Positions 3,965 through 55,845 are shown, counted from the first letter of the stretch. The stretch is 64,000 bases of DNA from Patescibacteria group bacterium (GCA_041671325.1 JBAZBR010000005.1:14184-78183); one strand, 5' to 3'. The notes: generated by a model not told the origin, from the letters alone. Numbers and translations are program-made.

Positions 3965-5266
3965 TTATGAATGTGCATTGCGAATCTCTCGATTCCTTTC
4001 CATCAGCCTTCTTAATTTGCAATAGGCAATCCCAGTTATTTTAACTAATGCGCAGAGCGCATATTCCTTGCCCGCAAAAATGCCTGGCCGGTTTTGGGTT
4101 TCTAGGTTCGGGTTATAAGGACTTACATCGAACAAACCGTAATAGCGGCAGAGATTTTCTTGCTGTGAGGTTTCCAAGGCCAGAATGGCCTGACGCAAGC
4201 CGCTCATCCAGAAAGCCATCTGCTCTTGATCCAGTTTCGAAAAAGCTTTAGCCGGAGTTTTTACTGAGCGCTGGGATAGCTCTGCTAGCACTGGATCAAA
4301 CTTTTTATTCCTGGGCATGAGTATTTGGTCTTGCCGGATGTTCGTCGATTTCTTAACAGATTTACCCGGATTCTTTAGCTTCAGCTTTTCTACCGACCCA
4401 ACAATTTCCAGGTCTTTAGTCAGTTTTTGGCGAAGCTTATAGAGAGCTTGCTTTTTGATTTGTCTGACTCTTTCTTTGGTTATATTAAACCTTTCCCCAA
4501 TTTGCTCAAGGAATAAAGGTTTTTCGTCATTCAAACCAAAAGACAAGGTTAAAATTTCGGCTTCCCGAGGAGATAAGATTTCCAGTATTCGCCAGATGTC
4601 TTCTTTTTTCAACTCTTGGCGGGTTTCAGGATCTGGCAAAGACTCTGTCTGATCTCCCAAGTTTTCAATCAAGCTTTCGCCATTCTCTAATGGCTCGTCC
4701 AAAGACGTATAGCCTGGTTTTATGCCTAATGCCTCTTCCACCTTATCGAAAGATAAACCAAGCGCTTCGGCGATCCTTTCGGTAGATGCCTGACTAGCCC
4801 AAACTTGATTAAGCTGCTTAGTGGTTTTCTTAATTCGGCTGATTAAAGCCACCTTACTCATTGGCAAAGCCACGATCCCGCCTGATTCAGCTACGGCCTG
4901 CAAAATTGCCTGCTTAATCCACCAATCCGCGTAAGAGATGAACCTAAAGCCCCGTTCAGGATCAAAGCGCTTAGCAGCCGTAATCAAGCCAAGATTGCCT
5001 TCGTTTATCAAATCCACTAATGATAAGCCGCGGCCTTGATAAAGACTGGCAACCGAAACGACAAATTTTAAATTGGCGGTAATCAGCCTGTCTAAAGCTT
5101 TTTTATCGCCATTCCTAAACCGTCTGGCTAGATTAATTTCCTGCTGTTGGGTCAGCAATGGGGTTGAACCGATTTCTTGCAAATAAATTTCCAGCGAAGA
5201 ATTCGACTCTTTCCCGCTGAAAGCCAAGCCGCGAGACGTCTTCAAAGCTCTCATGCTTCTAATCAC
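3965..5266 (-). CDS. Sigma-70 family RNA polymerase sigma factor with an ~150-aa C-terminal extension
   Basis: Region 2 (NLKFVVSVASLY...DLINEGNLGLITAAKRFDPERGFRFISYADWWIKQAI) and region 4 (ITKERVRQIKKQALYKLR) are present. About 150 residues follow region 4 with no recognisable motif. Confidence 0.8.
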   Translation of the reverse strand: MIRSMRALKTSRGLAFSGKESNSSLEIYLQEIGSTPLLTQQQEINLARRFRNGDKKALDRLITANLKFVVSVASLYQGRGLSLVDLINEGNLGLITAAKRFDPERGFRFISYADWWIKQAILQAVAESGGIVALPMSKVALISRIKKTTKQLNQVWASQASTERIAEALGLSFDKVEEALGIKPGYTSLDEPLENGESLIENLGDQTESLPDPETRQELKKEDIWRILEILSPREAEILTLSFGLNDEKPLFLEQIGERFNITKERVRQIKKQALYKLRQKLTKDLEIVGSVEKLKLKNPGKSVKKSTNIRQDQILMPRNKKFDPVLAELSQRSVKTPAKAFSKLDQEQMAFWMSGLRQAILALETSQQENLCRYYGLFDVSPYNPNLETQNRPGIFAGKEYALCALVKITGIAYCKLRRLMERNREIRNAHS

Positions 5267-6987: not shown

Positions 6988-8439
6988 TTAATAAGCCCTT
7001 GCCCAAACGGCTGTTGATTGCCCAGATTTGCCGCAAACCACGCATTTTTTCTGGATCTTCGGTTGATTAAAAGGAACCACCCTTGCAGTTGCCTTGGTTG
7101 CTTCTTTGATACTGTCCTCACAGGCCGTCTGTCCGCACCAGCTCGCAATTGCAAAACCTTTTTTGACTTCAATGACTTCTTTAAACTCATCGTAGGTCTT
7201 TACTTCAAAAGTGCGGTCATGCAAATATTGGCTGGCACGGGCAAATAAAGACTTTTGGATCTGTTCCATTAAGATCCTAAGCTGGGCAGGTAATTGCTTA
7301 TTAGCTATTACCTCTTTTTGGCCATTATCTCGGCGTACAATTTTAACTTGATCATCTCGTATTTCCGCCGGACCGATCTCAAGCCGAACCGGAATGCCTT
7401 GCATTTCCCAATCGTGAAATTTGAATCCAGGCGTTACATCATCCCGATCATCGACTGTAACTGAAAACTGATCCTTTAAGTTTAAAAATAAGTTATTGCA
7501 AGCCTTTAGTACAGATTCCTTTTCTTCATTGGTTTTGTAAATGGGCACAATAACCACTTGAATTGGAGCAATTTTTGGAGGTAAAATCAAGCCAGCTTCA
7601 TCTCCATGAACCATTATCAAAGCGCCAATAATTCTGGTTGAAAGACCCCAACTTGTTTGCCATGCATAATCAATTGACTTGTCTTTGTTTTGAAAAGATA
7701 TATTAAAAGCTTCTGCTTTTGAAAAATTTTGCCCAAGGTTGTGCGAGGTTGCCGCCTGCAAAGCCTTGCCATCCGGCATCATGGCTTCACAAGAAGTCGT
7801 ATACAAAGCTCCGGCAAATTTTTGGCTGTCAGTCTTTTTACCAGTTATAACTGGAATGGCTAAGGTGTTCTGGATAAAATCGGTGTAAGCTTTAAGCGCG
7901 TCCATTGTCTGCTTGTCAGCCTCCTCCAGGGTTGCATGAGCGGTATGACCTTCTTGCCATAAAAACTCTAGGGTGCGTAAAAATGGAAAAGTTCTTTTTT
8001 CCCAGCGGATCACGTTACACCATTGATTGACTTTTAATGGCAAATCTCGCCAAGAATGCACCCATTTTGAAAACATAGAGTACATAATGGTTTCTGAAGT
8101 TGGTCGGACCACCAAGGGTTCTTCAAGTTTTTGTCCACCCCCAATAGTAACCACGGCAAGTTCAGGGCTAAAGCCTTCCACATGTTCTTTTTCGCGATGC
8201 AAAAAACTCATGGGAATAAACAATGGGAAATATGCATTACGCGTGTTCATGGCTTTTATTTTTAGATCAAACAAACGAACAATATTTTCCCAAATCGCAT
8301 AACCATTCGGCCGAATAACCATACAGCCTTTTACTGGCGCATAATCAGCTAACTGGGCAGCTTGCACGACTTCTAAGTACCAAGCTGACAAGTCTTTTTC
8401 TTTGGTATTTCTTCTTGACATGTTGTTCTCCTTTTGCAT
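6988..8439 (-). CDS. proS: Prolyl-tRNA synthetase, archaeal/eukaryotic type
   Basis: 483-aa class II aaRS. The N-terminal SAWYLEVVQAAQLADYAPVKGCMVIRPNGYAIWE is characteristic of type-3 ProRS. The C-terminal zinc-binding tail ends in Tyr (VWARAY). Confidence 0.85.
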   Translation of the reverse strand: MQKENNMSRRNTKEKDLSAWYLEVVQAAQLADYAPVKGCMVIRPNGYAIWENIVRLFDLKIKAMNTRNAYFPLFIPMSFLHREKEHVEGFSPELAVVTIGGGQKLEEPLVVRPTSETIMYSMFSKWVHSWRDLPLKVNQWCNVIRWEKRTFPFLRTLEFLWQEGHTAHATLEEADKQTMDALKAYTDFIQNTLAIPVITGKKTDSQKFAGALYTTSCEAMMPDGKALQAATSHNLGQNFSKAEAFNISFQNKDKSIDYAWQTSWGLSTRIIGALIMVHGDEAGLILPPKIAPIQVVIVPIYKTNEEKESVLKACNNLFLNLKDQFSVTVDDRDDVTPGFKFHDWEMQGIPVRLEIGPAEIRDDQVKIVRRDNGQKEVIANKQLPAQLRILMEQIQKSLFARASQYLHDRTFEVKTYDEFKEVIEVKKGFAIASWCGQTACEDSIKEATKATARVVPFNQPKIQKKCVVCGKSGQSTAVWARAY

Positions 8440-20310: not shown

Positions 20311-20631
20311 TTACCAGCGATTTCCACCACTGCGGCGATTGTCAAATCCTCCGCCATTACCGCCCGTTCTTGGGGCGCGTGGCTTCATTTCGCGGGCTTC
20401 ATTCACGGTTAAGGTTCGACCTTCGAACTCTTTGCCGTTCCAAGCCTCAATGGCTTTCTGAGCATCTTCGTCCGTAGCCATTTCCACAAAGGCAAAGCCT
20501 CTTGAGCGGCCGGACATGCGATCCATGATGATGGTCGCTGATTCAACGTTGCCTGCTTGGGCAAATGCCTGTTGTAAGCCTTCTTGGGTAGTTGAATAAG
20601 GTAAACCACCAACGTATAATTTCTTTCCCAT
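20311..20631 (-). CDS. RRM-type RNA-binding protein with Gly/Arg-rich tail
   Basis: RNP-2 (LYVGGL) and RNP-1 (RGFAFVEM) motifs, with an RGG/GGN-rich C-terminus. Confidence 0.8.
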   Translation of the reverse strand: MGKKLYVGGLPYSTTQEGLQQAFAQAGNVESATIIMDRMSGRSRGFAFVEMATDEDAQKAIEAWNGKEFEGRTLTVNEAREMKPRAPRTGGNGGGFDNRRSGGNRW

Positions 20632-20787
20632 ATTGAACTTATAAATTTAAATATTTGAGAAGATGTAAGTCGACCCTTCTCACTCGCTTTTTACTTAAGC
20701 CCTTATTATTGGCCCAAGATCCCGTTTTGCGGGCAAACTAACTAAGAAAGCTTACACTGGCTCTTAGTATATAGATTTTCTACGTTT

Positions 20788-20903
20788 TGTCAACCCCGCA
20801 CCGCTTTCTAAACAAATATCAAATCAGGTATTCAATATATTATTTTTGACAAACATTTTACGATTTAAGAAGGGGTTGTTTATAGAAAGTGGTGCGGGGT
20901 CAA
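20788..20903. repeat. ~116-bp element with ~23-bp terminal inverted repeats (copy 1)
   Basis: Left arm TGTCAACCCCGCACCGCTTTCTA (20788-20810) is the near reverse complement of right arm TATAGAAAGTGGTGCGGGGTCAA (20881-20903). A second copy lies at 36527-36639. Confidence 0.6.
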
Positions 20904-20987: not shown

Positions 20988-21593
20988 ATGCCTTTAAAGA
21001 TTGATTATCCTCACCCAATAACTCTTGATTATCGGATCGGCGAGGAAATATTCAATGGACTGCCTGACAGCCTGGTTGTCGAAACCAAGTACCTTATGCT
21101 CCAAGTCATGCCGGAAGAATCTGCTAATGGCCAAACTGAAACTTGGACAAAGATTATTACCCGGCCGGCCTTTGAGATCGCTTTTTTGATAATGCTCAAT
21201 GGGGAACTTCACCTCATGCTCATGCAAAAGCGAAGAAAAGCCAATGACTCGCTGTTGACCAAACTGCCGGGCGGCTATTTCTCTGATGATTTGAATTACG
21301 ATAGGCTCATGGAGGAAAAAGTTCTCCATGACACTGGCATCCGCTTTTCTTCAACTGATTTAGTTCAATTGAACTCGGTTATCGGCCATTCGGAAATTCA
21401 TACTCCAATTTCGCTTTTTTACACAACTGCTTGGGAAGTAACCGGTGCCCCCAAGGATGGCATAACCATTGAGGCTGTTCCGTTTCGGCATGCTGTTGCT
21501 CTGGCCATAAATGGCGGCATTGAAAATGACAGTAGTTTTTCAGCTATCATGCAACTATTTGTACTCCAACAATGGAAACGCTTGAAAATCTAA
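20988..21593 (+). CDS. Hypothetical protein (201 aa)
   Basis: Promoter and terminator are defined. PGGYFSDD...EEKVLHDTGI resembles a Nudix box loosely but does not fit the GX5EX7REUXEEXGU spacing. Confidence 0.35.
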   Translation: MPLKIDYPHPITLDYRIGEEIFNGLPDSLVVETKYLMLQVMPEESANGQTETWTKIITRPAFEIAFLIMLNGELHLMLMQKRRKANDSLLTKLPGGYFSDDLNYDRLMEEKVLHDTGIRFSSTDLVQLNSVIGHSEIHTPISLFYTTAWEVTGAPKDGITIEAVPFRHAVALAINGGIENDSSFSAIMQLFVLQQWKRLKI

Positions 21594-32571: not shown

Positions 32572-32761
32572 ATTGTTACTTTTTTATTAATAAATTTCAT
32601 AATCGCTACATATATTAGTGCCAAAATCGACTTTTTCTTTCAAATACGCTTATCGGGATTTAACCAATAACCCTTGACTTGATTAATTTTAAATGCTAAT
32701 TTAGCAGGAATAAAAAACCAAAATGCTTTTAAATAAACGCTCGTTGAAAGGACAAAAAACC

Positions 32762-35350: not shown

Positions 35351-36097
35351 TTAAAACGCCTGATAGCCGGATTTTTCCAGCTTCTCGGCTAATTGCTTGC
35401 TGCCGGTTTTGACAATCTGGCCTTTCACTAAAATATGAATTTTTTTCGGTAAAAGGTATTTTAATATCCTCGAATAATGGGTAATTACTAAAAGGCCAAT
35501 ACCCATCCTTTTTGCCCGCAACATGCCTTGAGCGACTGTCTTTAAAGCATCAATATCCAAGCCTGAATCAATTTCGTCCAAAATTGCGTATTTTGGCTTC
35601 AACATTAAAAGCTGCAGAATTTCCAGGCGTTTTTTTTCACCGCCAGATAATCCTTCGTTCACCGATCGTTTAAGGAAATCCGGTTCAAATTTTAAAGCTT
35701 TAGCTTGTTTATCCAATTCATTCTGAAAAACATTTAATTTAAACTGGGTTTTCTGGGCCAACAGGGCTAAACGCAAGAAATTCCTGATCGAAACCCCGCT
35801 GATTTCCACGGGTTGCTGGAAAGCCATAAATACCCCGGCTTGCGCCCGTTTTTCAGTCGGCAAACTGGAAATATCTTTTTTGTCTAAAATTATTTTACCC
35901 GCTATGCGATTGGCCTTTGGATGACCCATTATTGAATTGGCTAGGGTTGATTTGCCTGATCCATTCGGGCCCATCAGGGCATGAATCTCGCCAGGCTTTA
36001 TTTCCAAGTTTATCGCTTTTAATATCAAATTACTTCCAACTTTCACGCTTAAATTGCTGATTTGCAGGGACATTTTGAAATTATTTAAAATCAGCAA
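35351..36097 (-). CDS. sufC: Fe-S cluster assembly ATPase SufC
   Basis: ABC ATPase: GPNGSGKST Walker A, LSGGEKKR signature, ILDEIDSGLD Walker B. Confidence 0.9.
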   Translation of the reverse strand: MLILNNFKMSLQISNLSVKVGSNLILKAINLEIKPGEIHALMGPNGSGKSTLANSIMGHPKANRIAGKIILDKKDISSLPTEKRAQAGVFMAFQQPVEISGVSIRNFLRLALLAQKTQFKLNVFQNELDKQAKALKFEPDFLKRSVNEGLSGGEKKRLEILQLLMLKPKYAILDEIDSGLDIDALKTVAQGMLRAKRMGIGLLVITHYSRILKYLLPKKIHILVKGQIVKTGSKQLAEKLEKSGYQAF

Positions 36098-36473
36098 TGC
36101 TAAACTTGCGCAAGGTGTTGGCTAATTGGTTTTGCATTTTTATCCAATTACCCTTCATGCAGCAATTTTTTTCATTTGGGCAATGGCCAGATTTGTTGGT
36201 ACAGCGGGTGCAGGCAAAATCTCCTTCAAATAATTCCACAACTTCAATGACTTTGATATTTTTGGGATTTTTAGCCAGCATATATCCGCCCTGGATGCCT
36301 TCCCGGCTCTTTAAAAAACCAGCTGCCTTCATGAACACTGCCAAACGGCTTATATAGCGGTAAGGCAAATGATAATCCTGGGCAATAAGCCTTAAGGATG
36401 AAAAACTTTTTTTCTTACTTAAACCAACCAGTAAGACTAAAGCGTAATCTGTCCGGGTTGAAAAAATTGGCAT
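36081..36473 (-). CDS. Rrf2-family transcriptional regulator (IscR/SufR-like)
   Basis: N-terminal wHTH (TDYALVLLVGL...) plus a Cys cluster (CTRCTNKSGHCPNEKNCC). First gene of the suf operon. Confidence 0.8.
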   Translation of the reverse strand: MPIFSTRTDYALVLLVGLSKKKSFSSLRLIAQDYHLPYRYISRLAVFMKAAGFLKSREGIQGGYMLAKNPKNIKVIEVVELFEGDFACTRCTNKSGHCPNEKNCCMKGNWIKMQNQLANTLRKFSIADFK

Positions 36474-36526
36474 AGCATTAATTATTAATACTAACTCCCA
36501 CTATTATAGAGGGAGTTAAAAATGTT

Positions 36527-36639
36527 GTCAACCCAGAGCCACTTTCCAAAATAACTATACTTTAGTTAAGGATATTTATTCTGAATTAATACCTATTTAA
36601 GATAAGCAAAATTTTTTATGGAAAGTGGTGCTGGGTCAA
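36527..36639. repeat. ~113-bp element with ~23-bp terminal inverted repeats (copy 2), in the suf operon leader
   Basis: TGTCAACCCAGAGCCACTTTCCAAA (36527-36550) against TATGGAAAGTGGTGCTGGGTCAA (36618-36639). Same TIR family as 20788-20903. Confidence 0.6.
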
Positions 36640-36680: not shown

Positions 36681-37730
36681 TTAGGTCTTGGATACTTTTA
36701 GGGTCCAGCTAGTTAAACCTGTTGTAGTGATATAAATGGTATGCAAGCCGTCAGTCACGTCGCCTTTCAGGGTTTTTGACAATATGGCTTCATACTCTTG
36801 GTAAACCCGATCGCCCACAACCACATCCGTATTTTCAACTTTAAATTTAGCCTTGCCTTTTAGGATGCCAAGTTCAAAAGTATATGAACCGCTTTTCGGG
36901 AAATCTACAATAACTTGGTTTTCATAAGTTATTGCCGCATCTTCAACCCCGCCCTCACCCCGGCCGTCAATGGAAAATGGCGGCGTAGGCGCCGGAAAAA
37001 CCGTCAAAGTCCCGTTCATGTTTGAGGTGGTGGCAAAATGCGCGCCTTTGGTAAAGTCTTTGCCGACTTGCCAAACCTTGCCTTTGTTATAATTGCCTTT
37101 TAAAATTGTATACTTTCCGTCCAAATTAAATGTTGGGCCATTGTTGTTTTCTCCGCCGGCAAAATCCATGACTAAATTCACGTTTGGTAAAGCTTTTATT
37201 GATTCCAGTCTTAAGGTTACCGTCCCCTCATCTTTTCTTACCCGGATTGGAAAACTCTGGACAGCCTTCATGGGTGTGGAACGGACAATCGGGGCCGGTA
37301 CGCCAGGCGTATTAACTGGCTTAAGCTGGCTGATGACTTTCGGGTCTTCAGCTGGAATTTTTGTGGGATCATAGCCAACCCTGACTTCATCCCCGTCCGT
37401 AAAACCATCCCCGTCCGTATCCGCATTCAGGGGATCAGTTTTGTATAACCTTTCTTCATTATTAGTCAGTCCGTCATTATCAGAATCAACATTGCCATTG
37501 GTGTTTAAATTGGAATTATCATTTAGGCTCTGATTGCTATTATCATTGGCATTCAGATTTTCATTGGCATTAGCGTTGGCATTCCCGTTAACATTAGGAA
37601 TTTCAGCATTAACATTCTCATTGGCATTAGTATTAGCATTGGCTGGTGGCGGGGTGGTTTTTTTGCCGCAAGCCGAAAGACCGACTGCCAAAGCTATGAT
37701 TAGAAAGCTAAAAAATATGGTCTTATTCAT
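36681..37730 (-). CDS. Lipoprotein with Asn/Ala-rich repeats and thrombospondin-type-3-like Ca-binding motifs
   Basis: Lipobox LSACG, NANANENLNAN repeats, DSDNDGLTNNEE and DTDGDGFTDGDE (DxDxDGxxDxxE). Start taken at MNKTIFF. Confidence 0.5.
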   Translation of the reverse strand: MNKTIFFSFLIIALAVGLSACGKKTTPPPANANTNANENVNAEIPNVNGNANANANENLNANDNSNQSLNDNSNLNTNGNVDSDNDGLTNNEERLYKTDPLNADTDGDGFTDGDEVRVGYDPTKIPAEDPKVISQLKPVNTPGVPAPIVRSTPMKAVQSFPIRVRKDEGTVTLRLESIKALPNVNLVMDFAGGENNNGPTFNLDGKYTILKGNYNKGKVWQVGKDFTKGAHFATTSNMNGTLTVFPAPTPPFSIDGRGEGGVEDAAITYENQVIVDFPKSGSYTFELGILKGKAKFKVENTDVVVGDRVYQEYEAILSKTLKGDVTDGLHTIYITTTGLTSWTLKVSKT

Positions 37731-37887
37731 ACCTATAAAATACCACTTTCCAATTGGCTTGGGCAATGGCTATTGCACCCTCACATCCTCTAGTCCCTAT
37801 AACCCCTTTTTGCACACATTGACAAAAAATATGAACTTGATATTATTAGACGAAAATCGTTCCTCAGACTGAAAAAAGGAGTTTTGT

Positions 37888-49380: not shown

Positions 49381-49719
49381 TGGCTCCGCGAGTCGGACTC
49401 GGACCGACAACCTACCGGTTACATTTATCCTTATGTTTCCATAAAGCATGGACTATATCTTTACCCGTCTTCGTTGCTTCGCAACTTCGTCGGGCAGGCC
49501 CGACTAAAATTACAAAGATTCAAAGGTGGGGGTACTCCGGTATCTAGTCTCTACGGTGCCCCTGTACCGATTAATGATACAAGGTTCCCACGGTATTAGC
49601 TTATCCAAATTATTCTTGGATTTAGCTTTCACCGTTATCCCGGAATGTTCATCCCAACGTTACCGTCGGGAGCTGCGTCAAATCCACAGCCGGTTGCTCT
49701 ACCATTGAGCTATCGCGGA
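49381..49719 (-). tRNA. tRNA-Asn (anticodon GUU) interrupted by a group I intron; exons 49686-49719 and 49381-49421
   Basis: Joined exons give a 75-nt cloverleaf with acceptor TCCGCGA/TCGCGGA, D-arm GCTCAATGGTAGAGC, anticodon stem ACCGG/CCGGT, loop CUGU|UAA, T-arm GTCGG-TCCGAGT-CCGAC, and CCA encoded. Confidence 0.75.
49422..49685 (-). ncRNA. Group I self-splicing intron (IC3-like) in the tRNA-Asn anticodon loop
   Basis: 264 nt. The 5' exon ends in U. The internal guide GCAGC at intron nt 10-14 pairs with exon GCUGU, giving a U-G wobble at the splice site. The intron ends in G. The core GUAGAGACUAGAUACCGGAGUACCCCCACCU resembles the P7/P3 core of the Azoarcus and Anabaena tRNA introns (GUAGAGACUAGACGGCACCCACCU), as recalled. 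Confidence 0.7.
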
Positions 49720-49750
49720 ACAATAATATTAATTATTTTGTATGGAAATA

Positions 49751-50067: not shown

Positions 50068-51282
50068 CTAATAGTCTTTCAATTTCTTCATGACCTCATG
50101 CTCTTTGATTCGTTCCAAAGCTTTGGCTTCAATTTGGCGAATGCGTTCCCGGGTCACGCCGAATTCTTGGCCGACTTCTTCCAAAGTGTGAGCCACCCCG
50201 TCATGCAAGCCAAAGCGCATTTCTAGAATTTTCTGCTCCCGCGGGCTTAAGCCTTCTAAAATGTCTTTTACATGATCTTTTAGCAATTGCATGGCCGCGG
50301 CCCGGTCTGGCGAAATCGTCTTTTGGTCTTCGATAAAATCGCCCAGGGTTGAATCCTCGTCATCTTCGCCGACTGAAGTTTCCAAAGAAACCGTCTCTTG
50401 GGAAATTTTGATGATGTGATGGATCTTTTCCAAAGGCTCGCCCATTTCCGCGGCAATTTCTTCAGGCATGGGTTCCCGGCCCAAGTCCTGGATTAACTGC
50501 CGTTCAATCTGCTGGAACTTATTTATGGTTTCTACCATGTGAACTGGGATACGGATGGTGCGGGATTGGTCAGCCAAAGCCCGGGTGATGGCTTGGCGGA
50601 TCCACCAGGTGGCATAAGTGGAAAATTTATAGCCTTTACGGTAGTCAAATTTTTCCACGGCCCGGAACAAGCCAATGTTGCCTTCCTGGATCAAGTCCAA
50701 AAGCGATAAAGAGCGGCCCGTAAATTTTTTGGCAATGGAAACCACCAAGCGCAAGTTCGCTTCAACTAATTTCTTTTCCGCTTCCACATCCCCGGCTTCT
50801 TTCCTTTTGGCCAAGGTAACTTCTTCGCCTGGCCGAAGCAACGGCACCTTGCCAATTTCCCGCAAATACATCTGGATTGAGTCGCCGGAAATGTCTGATA
50901 AATCCAAACGGCTTAAATCCAAGCTGGCCTTCTCTTTTTCCTTGGCTTTTTTTTCTGGAACTTTCGGTGCCTCAAAACCGCCAAGGATGTTAGTGTTTTC
51001 CACCAACCGCAAGCCTAATAAATCCAGCTTAGTCAAAAAATCCTCGTATTCCGGCAAATAATCTTCCAAATCTGGAAAAGCGTATAAAATTTCGCCTTCA
51101 GTCACAAAACCCCTTTGTTTGGCTTTTTTGGTCATTAAGTCAGCCGAATCTATAGGAAAAACAAACTTGCGCCGGGGTTCCTTTTTTTCAACTGCTTTTG
51201 CTTTTTGGCGAATTTTAGATTTCTTTTTGGCCCTTTTTACAGCTGGCTTTTTAGTGATTTTACTTTTCTTCTTTTTTGGCAT
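50068..51282 (-). CDS. rpoD: Primary RNA polymerase sigma factor (sigma-70/RpoD)
   Basis: Lys-rich N-terminus, region 1.2/2 ([53 protein letters not shown]), region 3, and region 4 ([24 protein letters not shown]). Classical dnaG-rpoD arrangement. Confidence 0.9.
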
Positions 51283-55480: not shown

Positions 55481-55768
55481 AAGCGAGGCTTCGTGCGAAG
55501 GACGTAGCGAAGTTGCGCATGCGACTACGCGAAGCTCTGAGCGCGAAACGAGCTGGCGGAAGGGGCGACCCGCCTACGTTTAACTTCTGCGGGCAGGGAT
55601 TCGTCCATAAATTTGTTAATTATTTCATACCTCACGAATGAGGAGCGGACGAACGGAGTGAGGAGCACGCATTCGTGAGGAAATGCGAGGCTTCGTGCGA
55701 AGGGCGTAGCGGAGTTGCGGATGCGACTACGCGAAGCTCTGAGCGCGAAACGAGCTGGCGGAAGGGGA
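55481..55768. repeat. Tandem 85-bp direct repeat (2 copies, 4 mismatches, 118-bp spacer); each copy ends with the 12-nt 3' terminus of tRNA-Ser
   Basis: Copy a is 55481-55565 and copy b is 55684-55768, both read directly. Each ends ...GAGCTGGCGGAAGGGG, which is the reverse complement of the tRNA-Ser 3' end CCCCTTCCGCCA. Copy b is contiguous with the genuine tRNA. Confidence 0.75.
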
Positions 55769-55845
55769 GAGATTCGAACTCTCGAAAGGCTTTCACCTTT
55801 ACTTGCTTTCCAAGCAAGCGCACTCGACCACTATGCGACCCTTCC
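55756..55845 (-). tRNA. tRNA-Ser (anticodon GGA), class II with long variable arm
   Basis: GGAAGGG acceptor, anticodon stem-loop CTTGC-TTGGAAA-GCAAG, variable arm TAAAGGTGAAAGCCTTT, T-loop GTTCGAATC, CCA encoded. Confidence 0.85.

Follow-up and report, generated by a model that had tools for sequence, protein, structure and literature searches.

A probable miniature inverted-repeat transposon at promoter −35 hexamers of Patescibacteria

Two hairpin sequences of ~105 bp, with the same build and the same orientation, lie at 20788-20903 and 36527-36639 of a 64,000-nucleotide stretch of Patescibacteria DNA (the window). [quoted passage not shown] The source genome is low in GC (42.5%) and is syntenic with the MAG SURF_31, at roughly 70-75% protein identity.

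The two copies in the window and the promoters beside them

Both copies were found where they had been predicted, with inverted arms and with AT-rich interiors that differ between copies (~50% identical to each other). The predicted sites were right, but the predicted extents had added the flanking TCAA on both sides and TG/TTG on the left. Copy 1 occupies 20794-20899 on the plus strand (106 bp), with terminal inverted repeats (TIRs) at 20794-20810 and 20883-20899, and copy 2 occupies 36532-36635 on the plus strand (104 bp), with TIRs at 36532-36548 and 36619-36635. The nhmmer profile matches had E values of 7e-22 for copy 1, where the plus strand gave the better score, and 6e-20 for copy 2. 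Identical TCAA tetranucleotides abut both ends of each copy and are read here as target-site duplications (20790-20793 and 20900-20903 for copy 1; 36528-36531 and 36636-36639 for copy 2). Inverted arms were indeed present, but instead of the ~23 bp predicted their pairing was measured over 17 bp, with one G·T pair in copy 1 and one A/G mismatch plus one G·T pair in copy 2. The 5′ end of the window copies reads CCC(C/A)G..CC.CTTTC and the 3′ end GAAAGTGGTGC(G/T)GGG, and the arms of the two copies differ by two compensatory changes (C-G to A-T and T-A to C-G). In the element as a whole the TIRs are near-perfect over 17 bp (CCC[A/C]GC[A/C]CCACTTTC..), or over 17-20 bp when given for the family.

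The predicted hairpins had energies of −41.5 kcal/mol (z −5.3) for copy 1 and −34.4 kcal/mol (z −4.2) for copy 2, and both strands folded about equally well (−34 to −41 kcal/mol, z-score −4.2 to −6.1). A 19-nt arm pattern matched three times in the window against 0.05 matches expected from shuffles, and a profile built from 49 copies of other genomes revealed no third copy in the 64 kb (next best E about 6).

Copy 1 lies between a gene for an RRM-domain protein (20311-20631, minus strand; RRM_1 domain) and a hypothetical gene (20988-21593, plus strand). The original prediction had set it just upstream of the promoter of the latter, and a plausible plus-strand promoter does lie ~20 bp downstream of the copy; however, the left duplication itself forms the −35 hexamer of a minus-strand promoter facing the RRM-protein gene. 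This sigma-70-type promoter (20766-20793, minus strand; ATG 20631) had 11/12 matches in the promoter scan, and consists of a −35 hexamer TTGACA (20793-20788), made of the duplicated TTGA plus CA, a 16-nt spacer and a −10 hexamer TATACT (20771-20766). Copy 2 is located between the start side of an Rrf2 gene (36081-36473, minus strand), followed by sufC and sufB/D (Rrf2, SufC and SufB/D domains), and the stop codon side of a TSP3-repeat gene (36681-37766, minus strand), which ends 45 nt from the copy. It had been assigned to the leader of the Rrf2-suf operon, and it stands instead immediately upstream of the −35 hexamer of the Rrf2-sufCBD promoter (36503-36531, minus strand; Rrf2 ATG 36473). This promoter had 12/12 matches: a −35 hexamer TTGACA (36531-36526; again the duplicated TTGA plus CA), a 17-nt spacer and a −10 hexamer TATAAT (36508-36503). 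The best promoter match at both sites was thus on the minus strand, with the −35 hexamer straddling the left TCAA.

A further palindrome, AACTCCC-N11-GGGAGTT, lies outside the element at 36493-36517, across the −10 box of the Rrf2-sufCBD promoter. It was kept base for base between the window and the SURF_31 locus L037 (about 7505-7530), in a surrounding spacer that has diverged, and on this sequence comparison it is more likely to be the Rrf2 operator than the arms are.

Other features of the window were recorded in the course of this analysis. Two sigma-70-family genes with regions 1.2, 2, 3 and 4 are encoded within the 64 kb (3965-5266 and 50068-51282, both on the minus strand, the second adjoining dnaG), and their presence fits the canonical TTGACA/TATAAT promoters found throughout the window. 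The anticodon loop of a tRNA-Asn(GUU) gene (49381-49719, minus strand) is interrupted by a 264-nt group I intron, identified as Rfam Intron_gpI at 49429-49744; ARAGORN found this tRNA-Asn only with introns allowed. In addition, a GC-rich repeat family occurs in this AT-rich genome (55475-55568, 55679-55770, 58286-58335 and 49215-49320), including two direct 92-nt copies with 93% identity, separated by 202 bp. The second continues into the 3′ end of tRNA-Ser(GGA) (55756-55845, minus strand), the first carries a partial duplicate of that end (TGGCGGAAGGGG), and inverted pieces of related sequence are found around 58300 and next to the intron-containing tRNA-Asn. The family had no match in Rfam and could represent an att-like duplication or a tRNA-trailer element.

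Copies, flanking duplications and empty sites in other genomes

When 185,579 species, each represented by one genome, were scanned with a two-arm pattern, 45 loci were obtained, all of them in Patescibacteria assemblies except the GC-rich outlier L016. The hosts comprise SURF_31, Kerfeld-, Staskawicz-, Kaiser- and Yonathbacteria, Paceibacterota, and a number of MAGs that bear the label Saccharibacteria; within the NCBI Parcubacteria group, Kerfeld- and Staskawiczbacteria are distinct candidate phyla. The 'uncultured Candidatus Saccharibacteria' TPA assemblies (L002, L003, L007, L009, L021, L038 and others) have housekeeping stretches with 72-77% nucleotide identity to Staskawiczbacteria and 69-74% to SURF_31 or other Patescibacteria loci. 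Judged by these identities, the label is probably a coarse taxonomic assignment and the MAGs are probably Parcubacteria-group genomes; since they match Parcubacteria-group loci, we make no claim for true Saccharibacteria. The only match outside Patescibacteria (L016 3521-3618, in the Fimbriimonadaceae MAG DATJYD01) is a GC-rich hairpin whose palindrome is ~10 bp longer than the pattern (GAGTGCGGCG...CGCCGCACTC) and which lacks direct repeats at its flanks; a relation to the element is improbable.

Relaxing the search gave 57 copies of 91-109 bp in the genome set, including diverged ones beginning with TCCAG, with at least 19 copies in SURF_31 and at least seven in Kerfeldbacteria PEXW01, compared with two in the 64-kb window. 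Metagenome contigs were scanned with one arm plus TTGA, so that only one flank was fixed by the search. The 78 loci obtained corresponded to ~46 non-redundant real copies, 34-109 bp long and five of them on a single 496-kb contig, and to ~15 chance matches in GC-rich coding DNA. The check for further copies attached to the original prediction was thereby answered with ~57 in Parcubacteria-group assemblies and ~46 in metagenomes. In viral contigs, the single-arm scan gave only single chance matches among the matches listed, and the two-arm scan gave three chance matches lacking the left arm and no copy of the element.

Shorter forms also occur. Derivatives of 34-40 bp consist of two arms head to head, forming a near-perfect palindrome that is still flanked by TCAA/TTGA repeats (L178 7428-7467, L195 2010-2049, L204 2392-2431, L211 2159-2198, L237 5469-5508 and L240 58-91), and variants of 80-83 bp were seen at L197 and L225.

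Identical flanking repeats of at least 4 bp, abutting the terminal CCC... and ...GGG, were present in 33 of the 57 genome-set copies and comprised at least six different sequences: TCAA/TTGA in most, followed by TAAA/TTTA, TTAA, TATA, TTTGA and CAAG. The independent metagenome set agreed, with the same tetranucleotide on the unselected flank in 38 of the 46 non-redundant copies. Since the two flanks vary together, these repeats indicate a 4-bp target-site duplication, not a motif borne by the element or a duplication-free insertion of HUH type. Target-site duplications, whose presence was among the points to be checked, were therefore found in most copies, those of the window included. About 40% of the genome-set copies have no perfect duplication, and some have mixed flanks, such as TTAA at one end with TTGA at the opposite end. 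Non-matching flanks were noted at L228 5981-6082 (also L236), L020, L034, L040, L188 and L197, either as inverted TTGA...TCAA or as TTAA/TAAA opposite TTGA; such flanks suggest that dispersed copies have recombined with one another, by inversion or exchange.

Three comparisons between related genomes set filled against empty orthologous sites, with boundaries at the duplicated tetranucleotide. The Rrf2 promoter is filled in the window and empty in SURF_31 (L037): the alignment spans the −10 box, the spacer and TGTCAA, and similarity stops exactly at the element boundary. Conversely, the response-regulator promoter is filled in L037, where a copy (2656-2758) sits at the −35 hexamer TTGACT, and is uninterrupted in the window, where synteny with L037 and promoter alignment identify the unoccupied target as TTGACT-17-TAATTT (32674-32702, plus strand; ATG 32762). 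In the third case, L030 of Kerfeldbacteria is filled and L042 of SURF_31 is empty with a single TGTCAA, with orthologous genes on both sides. Conservation of the arms in orthologous intergenic regions, which the original prediction had entertained, gives way at these three sites to a difference between filled and empty. No polymorphism was seen at strain level: three other assemblies of the same strain, which is also present in ENA ERZ27249449 (618-kb contig), carry identical copies.

The same interior subfamily was found with the TTGACA flank on either side (e.g., L013 vs L036), and among the copies with a confidently orientable interior 11 had TCAA and five had TTGA. In some loci two copies bracket a single gene (L002 5614-7056, L011 5767-6668, L025 326-1161, L027 979-2163 and L010 2149-2841). 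The gene bracketed in L002 is glutamate-dehydrogenase-like, all four flanks are TTAA, and the arrangement resembles a composite transposon.

When oriented, the pre-insertion site reads TT(G/T)A with a C after it, giving TTGAC(A/T) or TTTAC(A). A promoter of the form TTGACN-16/18-TAnnnT pointing outward abutted 18 of the 56 copies, whereas such adjacency was found for 0.09% of random positions and for 13% of all TTGAC sites in the same loci. The preferred site of the element is thus TTGA^C, which is the −35 hexamer in promoters of sigma-70 type. The spacers occupied were tandem in 30 cases, divergent in 10 and convergent in two, so that at least one gene is almost always downstream, and the typical location is a short spacer between tandem genes, 20-80 nt past a stop codon and 40-90 nt ahead of the next start. 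The genes beside the copies are functionally unrelated and encode, among others, the RRM protein, the suf operon, the response regulator, pilins, a ribosomal protein and glutamate dehydrogenase. The −35 bias may reflect selection on surviving insertions instead of targeting by an enzyme; selection alone could produce it, because TTGAC sites inside genes would be lethal targets.

A second kind of target was found in some genomes, where insertion occurred at GGG TTT ACA, which in type IV pilin genes encodes G↓FT, with duplication of TTTA. In these pilin-like genes (copies at L009 3237-3341, L021 6148-6252, L022 6307-6411 and 6888-6989, and L038 1198-1302) the element abuts exactly at the cleavage motif G↓FT(I/L)(I/V)EL. 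The start codon and the whole leader peptide (e.g., MKKLFNLRNNHKKESGAG↓FTIIELL) are encoded within the element, the last codons being ESGAG, and in one case a frame beginning at an ATG further upstream crosses the whole element without a stop.

The nature of the element and the alternatives

We conclude that the element is very probably a mobile, non-autonomous DNA transposon that forms target duplications and has no coding capacity, that is, a MITE. It is small and non-coding, ends in TIRs, is flanked by a duplication of varying sequence, is present in several copies per genome and occupies sites that are filled in one genome and empty in another. The TIRs form 17 consecutive pairs; in A3, the subfamily alignment of 24 sequences, 98.5% of cells are paired, and the 56-sequence alignment shows arms of nearly constant sequence. 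The MITE option of the original prediction was accordingly borne out, as more copies, target-site duplications and empty sites at orthologous positions were all found.

The proposed mechanism starts from a transposase that would be supplied in trans and make 4-nt staggered cuts at the target, the repair of which would duplicate TTGA. With TTGA present twice, the side nearer the gene once more reads TTGACA, and the −35 hexamer (TTGA+CA) would be rebuilt there, while the distal side would keep a TTGACC look-alike running into the element. Insertions into promoters would be tolerated in compact genomes and hence persist. As a likely secondary effect on the host, the GC-rich arm would replace the native region upstream of the −35 hexamer, and a very stable hairpin would be placed at the 3′ end of the upstream transcript, in copy 2 past the stop codon of the TSP3-repeat gene; we infer changes in expression from both.

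Several observations stand against this verdict. Single arms and arm pairs spaced by 0.15-4 kb were sought, whether or not a duplication was present, and led to no autonomous element in 0.4 Mb and then in 0.93 Mb; arm pairs 0.4-3.5 kb apart with a duplication were not found beyond chance in 0.93 Mb of flanking sequence; the arm-pair searches picked up only chance matches or a gene with a neighbouring MITE on either side. BLASTN of all loci against each other showed no IS-sized multicopy repeats, and Pfam detected no transposase domain, Y1 included, among 30 ORFs of the window. An ORF-poor 2-kb stretch around the L034 copy was considered as a decayed transposase and rejected, as it contained only small ORFs and had no Rfam match. 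Furthermore, the arms hardly vary over several candidate phyla, an unusual trait in a MITE, and their variable positions change jointly. Columns 16/108 and 17/107 each show four pair types (CG 20, AU 16, GC 8 and UA 5 in the former; AU 25, CG 21, GC 3 and UA 2 in the latter). This covariation hints at a constraint on hairpin formation beyond a plain double-strand-DNA cut-and-paste model; it would also arise from concerted evolution of the ends or from several master copies.

A more specific version of the transposon reading is one that we advance tentatively and regard as rather unlikely. The element would be engaged in a long-lived, Patescibacteria-specific partnership with a candidate enzyme, possibly single-copy or domesticated, and would not be the remnant of a decaying IS. 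That the enzyme has its recognition site in the invariant CCC(A/C)GCACCACTTTC hairpin ends and is actively directed to −35 hexamers (TTGAC) is a similarly doubtful part of the proposal. If it were true, minimal genomes would have gained a mobile promoter-proximal cassette, also recruited to provide type IV pilin genes with their start codon and leader peptide (M...ESGAG↓FT).

Among the rival explanations, an improbable one is a single-strand-DNA hairpin element of REPIN/RAYT or IS200/IS605 (PATE) type, in which an inverted doublet of a ~17-nt unit would be moved by a single-copy HUH (Y1) transposase and inherited vertically with it. Two inverted units around a ~70-nt variable spacer, ~105 nt in all, extragenic and present in tens of copies per genome, are REPIN-like anatomy, but a REP unit folds on itself, which the arm, with its single G in a run of C, A and T, cannot do. 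The preservation of arm complementarity through double changes would be explained, as would the flanking repeats retained by the bare palindromes, the conservation of the arms across candidate phyla and the lack of an IS partner in the flanks searched. The flanks themselves speak on both sides. TCAA is the right-end cleavage tetranucleotide of IS608, and it is also a flank of the element; however, HUH transposition creates no target duplication and uses a fixed right-end tetranucleotide, whereas here the flanks vary together (TTAA..TTAA, TAAA..TAAA, TATA..TATA, TCAA..TCAA) and the empty sites hold one copy. The ends are, moreover, equivalent, with the interior in either orientation relative to the target, which argues against the PATE type, and the lack of a Y1 domain among the 30 window ORFs argues against HUH-type movement.

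A very improbable reading is that of a structured RNA or transcription signal, either a terminating or stabilising long hairpin or an sRNA, whose spread would be incidental. The very stable hairpin, the covarying arms and the usual position filling short spacers between tandem genes are consistent with it; the absence of an orientation preference and the nearly equal folding of both strands are not. The stem is followed by no T-run, the terminator scan was empty for both window copies, the interior shows little conservation and orthologous spacers lack the element. No Rfam family was matched by the element at gathering score in the window and seven loci, and the E-value mode returned for both copies only plant miRNA-precursor hairpins far below threshold. 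Two related attempts were abandoned: an inner hairpin, GATATTY...AAATATC, in the Kerfeld/SURF_31/window subfamily was 81% paired with almost no covariation, and the G·U vs A·C arm mismatches were too few, and in both directions, for strand assignment.

That the arms are operator half-sites ~90 bp apart, inverted and bound by Rrf2, the response regulator or a global factor, is scarcely credible: the arm is conserved and the element stands immediately upstream of −35 hexamers, but the adjacent genes are functionally unrelated, variable flanking repeats and empty sites denote insertion, and the SURF_31 Rrf2 promoter lacks the element and yet keeps AACTCCC-N11-GGGAGTT over its −10 box. The regulatory module of the original prediction, be it protein-bound or an RNA hairpin, is hence not supported: the element is absent from that promoter, occurs in either orientation and matches no Rfam family. 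Other candidates were discarded: an integron attC site, as the ends TGTCAAC and GGGTCAA (or GTTGACA) misfit RYYYAAC/GTTRRRY and the copies are dispersed, not arrayed; a tRNA-like arm (ACCCCGC-A-CCA), as the strand order of the hairpin leaves no free acceptor end; and CIRCE, the NrdR box and a DNA-uptake sequence, on sequence or copy number.

Taking the element as a MITE, its distribution is relevant to Patescibacteria (CPR), which have tiny genomes and are usually described as poor in mobile DNA. A family common to several of their candidate phyla would indicate that non-autonomous transposons do spread there, and its copies take a sizeable share of short intergenic spacers. The family could serve as a marker for strain typing and for gene flow between uncultured lineages. 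It also offers a natural experiment in promoter architecture: filled and empty alleles are comparable because the insertion splits the −35 hexamer and rebuilds it, and they would show the contribution of the region upstream of −35. In annotation, the arms should not be taken for an Rrf2/suf regulatory site. The mobilising enzyme, once found, could give a small, sequence-defined transposition tool for a group whose genetics is only beginning.

Comparison with known systems

A full-text literature search found nothing relevant on MITEs in CPR/Patescibacteria or on the arm sequence, and a 2024 survey of prokaryotic MITEs makes no mention of the phyla that carry the element. We are thus apparently dealing with a miniature transposon with no described precedent in the literature, and its likeness to known systems is partial in each case.

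With REPINs the element shares the inverted doublet with a ~70-nt spacer, the length of about 100 nt, the extragenic location, the maintained hairpin complementarity and, possibly, long-term persistence without a classical IS. REP units, however, are small palindromes moved in RAYT fashion without duplication, whereas the arm of the element does not pair with itself and a 4-bp duplication is the rule.

The ends recall another group. Elements of the IS1380/piggyBac type have termini CC(C)...(G)GG and an AT-rich duplication of 4 bp (4-5 bp in IS1380), which is TTAA in piggyBac. IS1380 serves as a prokaryotic outgroup or relative of piggyBac (PMC10813416). The element resembles them in two end features only, its CCC/GGG termini and its duplications TCAA, TTAA, TAAA and TATA, and differs from piggyBac in that the dominant target is TTGA(C) instead of TTAA and in that no transposase was found beside the arms. 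Kinship with IS1380/piggyBac, argued by analogy of the ends, would be a lead only.

In general build the element is like Correia/NEMIS of Neisseria, RUP, ERIC, Nezha and MITEAba12, which are non-coding, about 100-150 bp long and bounded by TIRs of about 20-26 bp. Correia-type MITEs also occur in tens of intergenic copies with a short target duplication, form long hairpins in transcripts and coincide with promoter hexamers or create them. For Correia and RUP the duplication is TA and the associated transposases are of IS630 type; the element, on the contrary, has a 4-bp duplication (TNAA-like, mostly TTGA) and unrelated repeat sequences. It differs from the Correia type, in addition, in being restricted to Patescibacteria, with arms nearly invariant across several candidate phyla, and its hallmark is insertion into the −35 hexamer itself, which the duplication regenerates.
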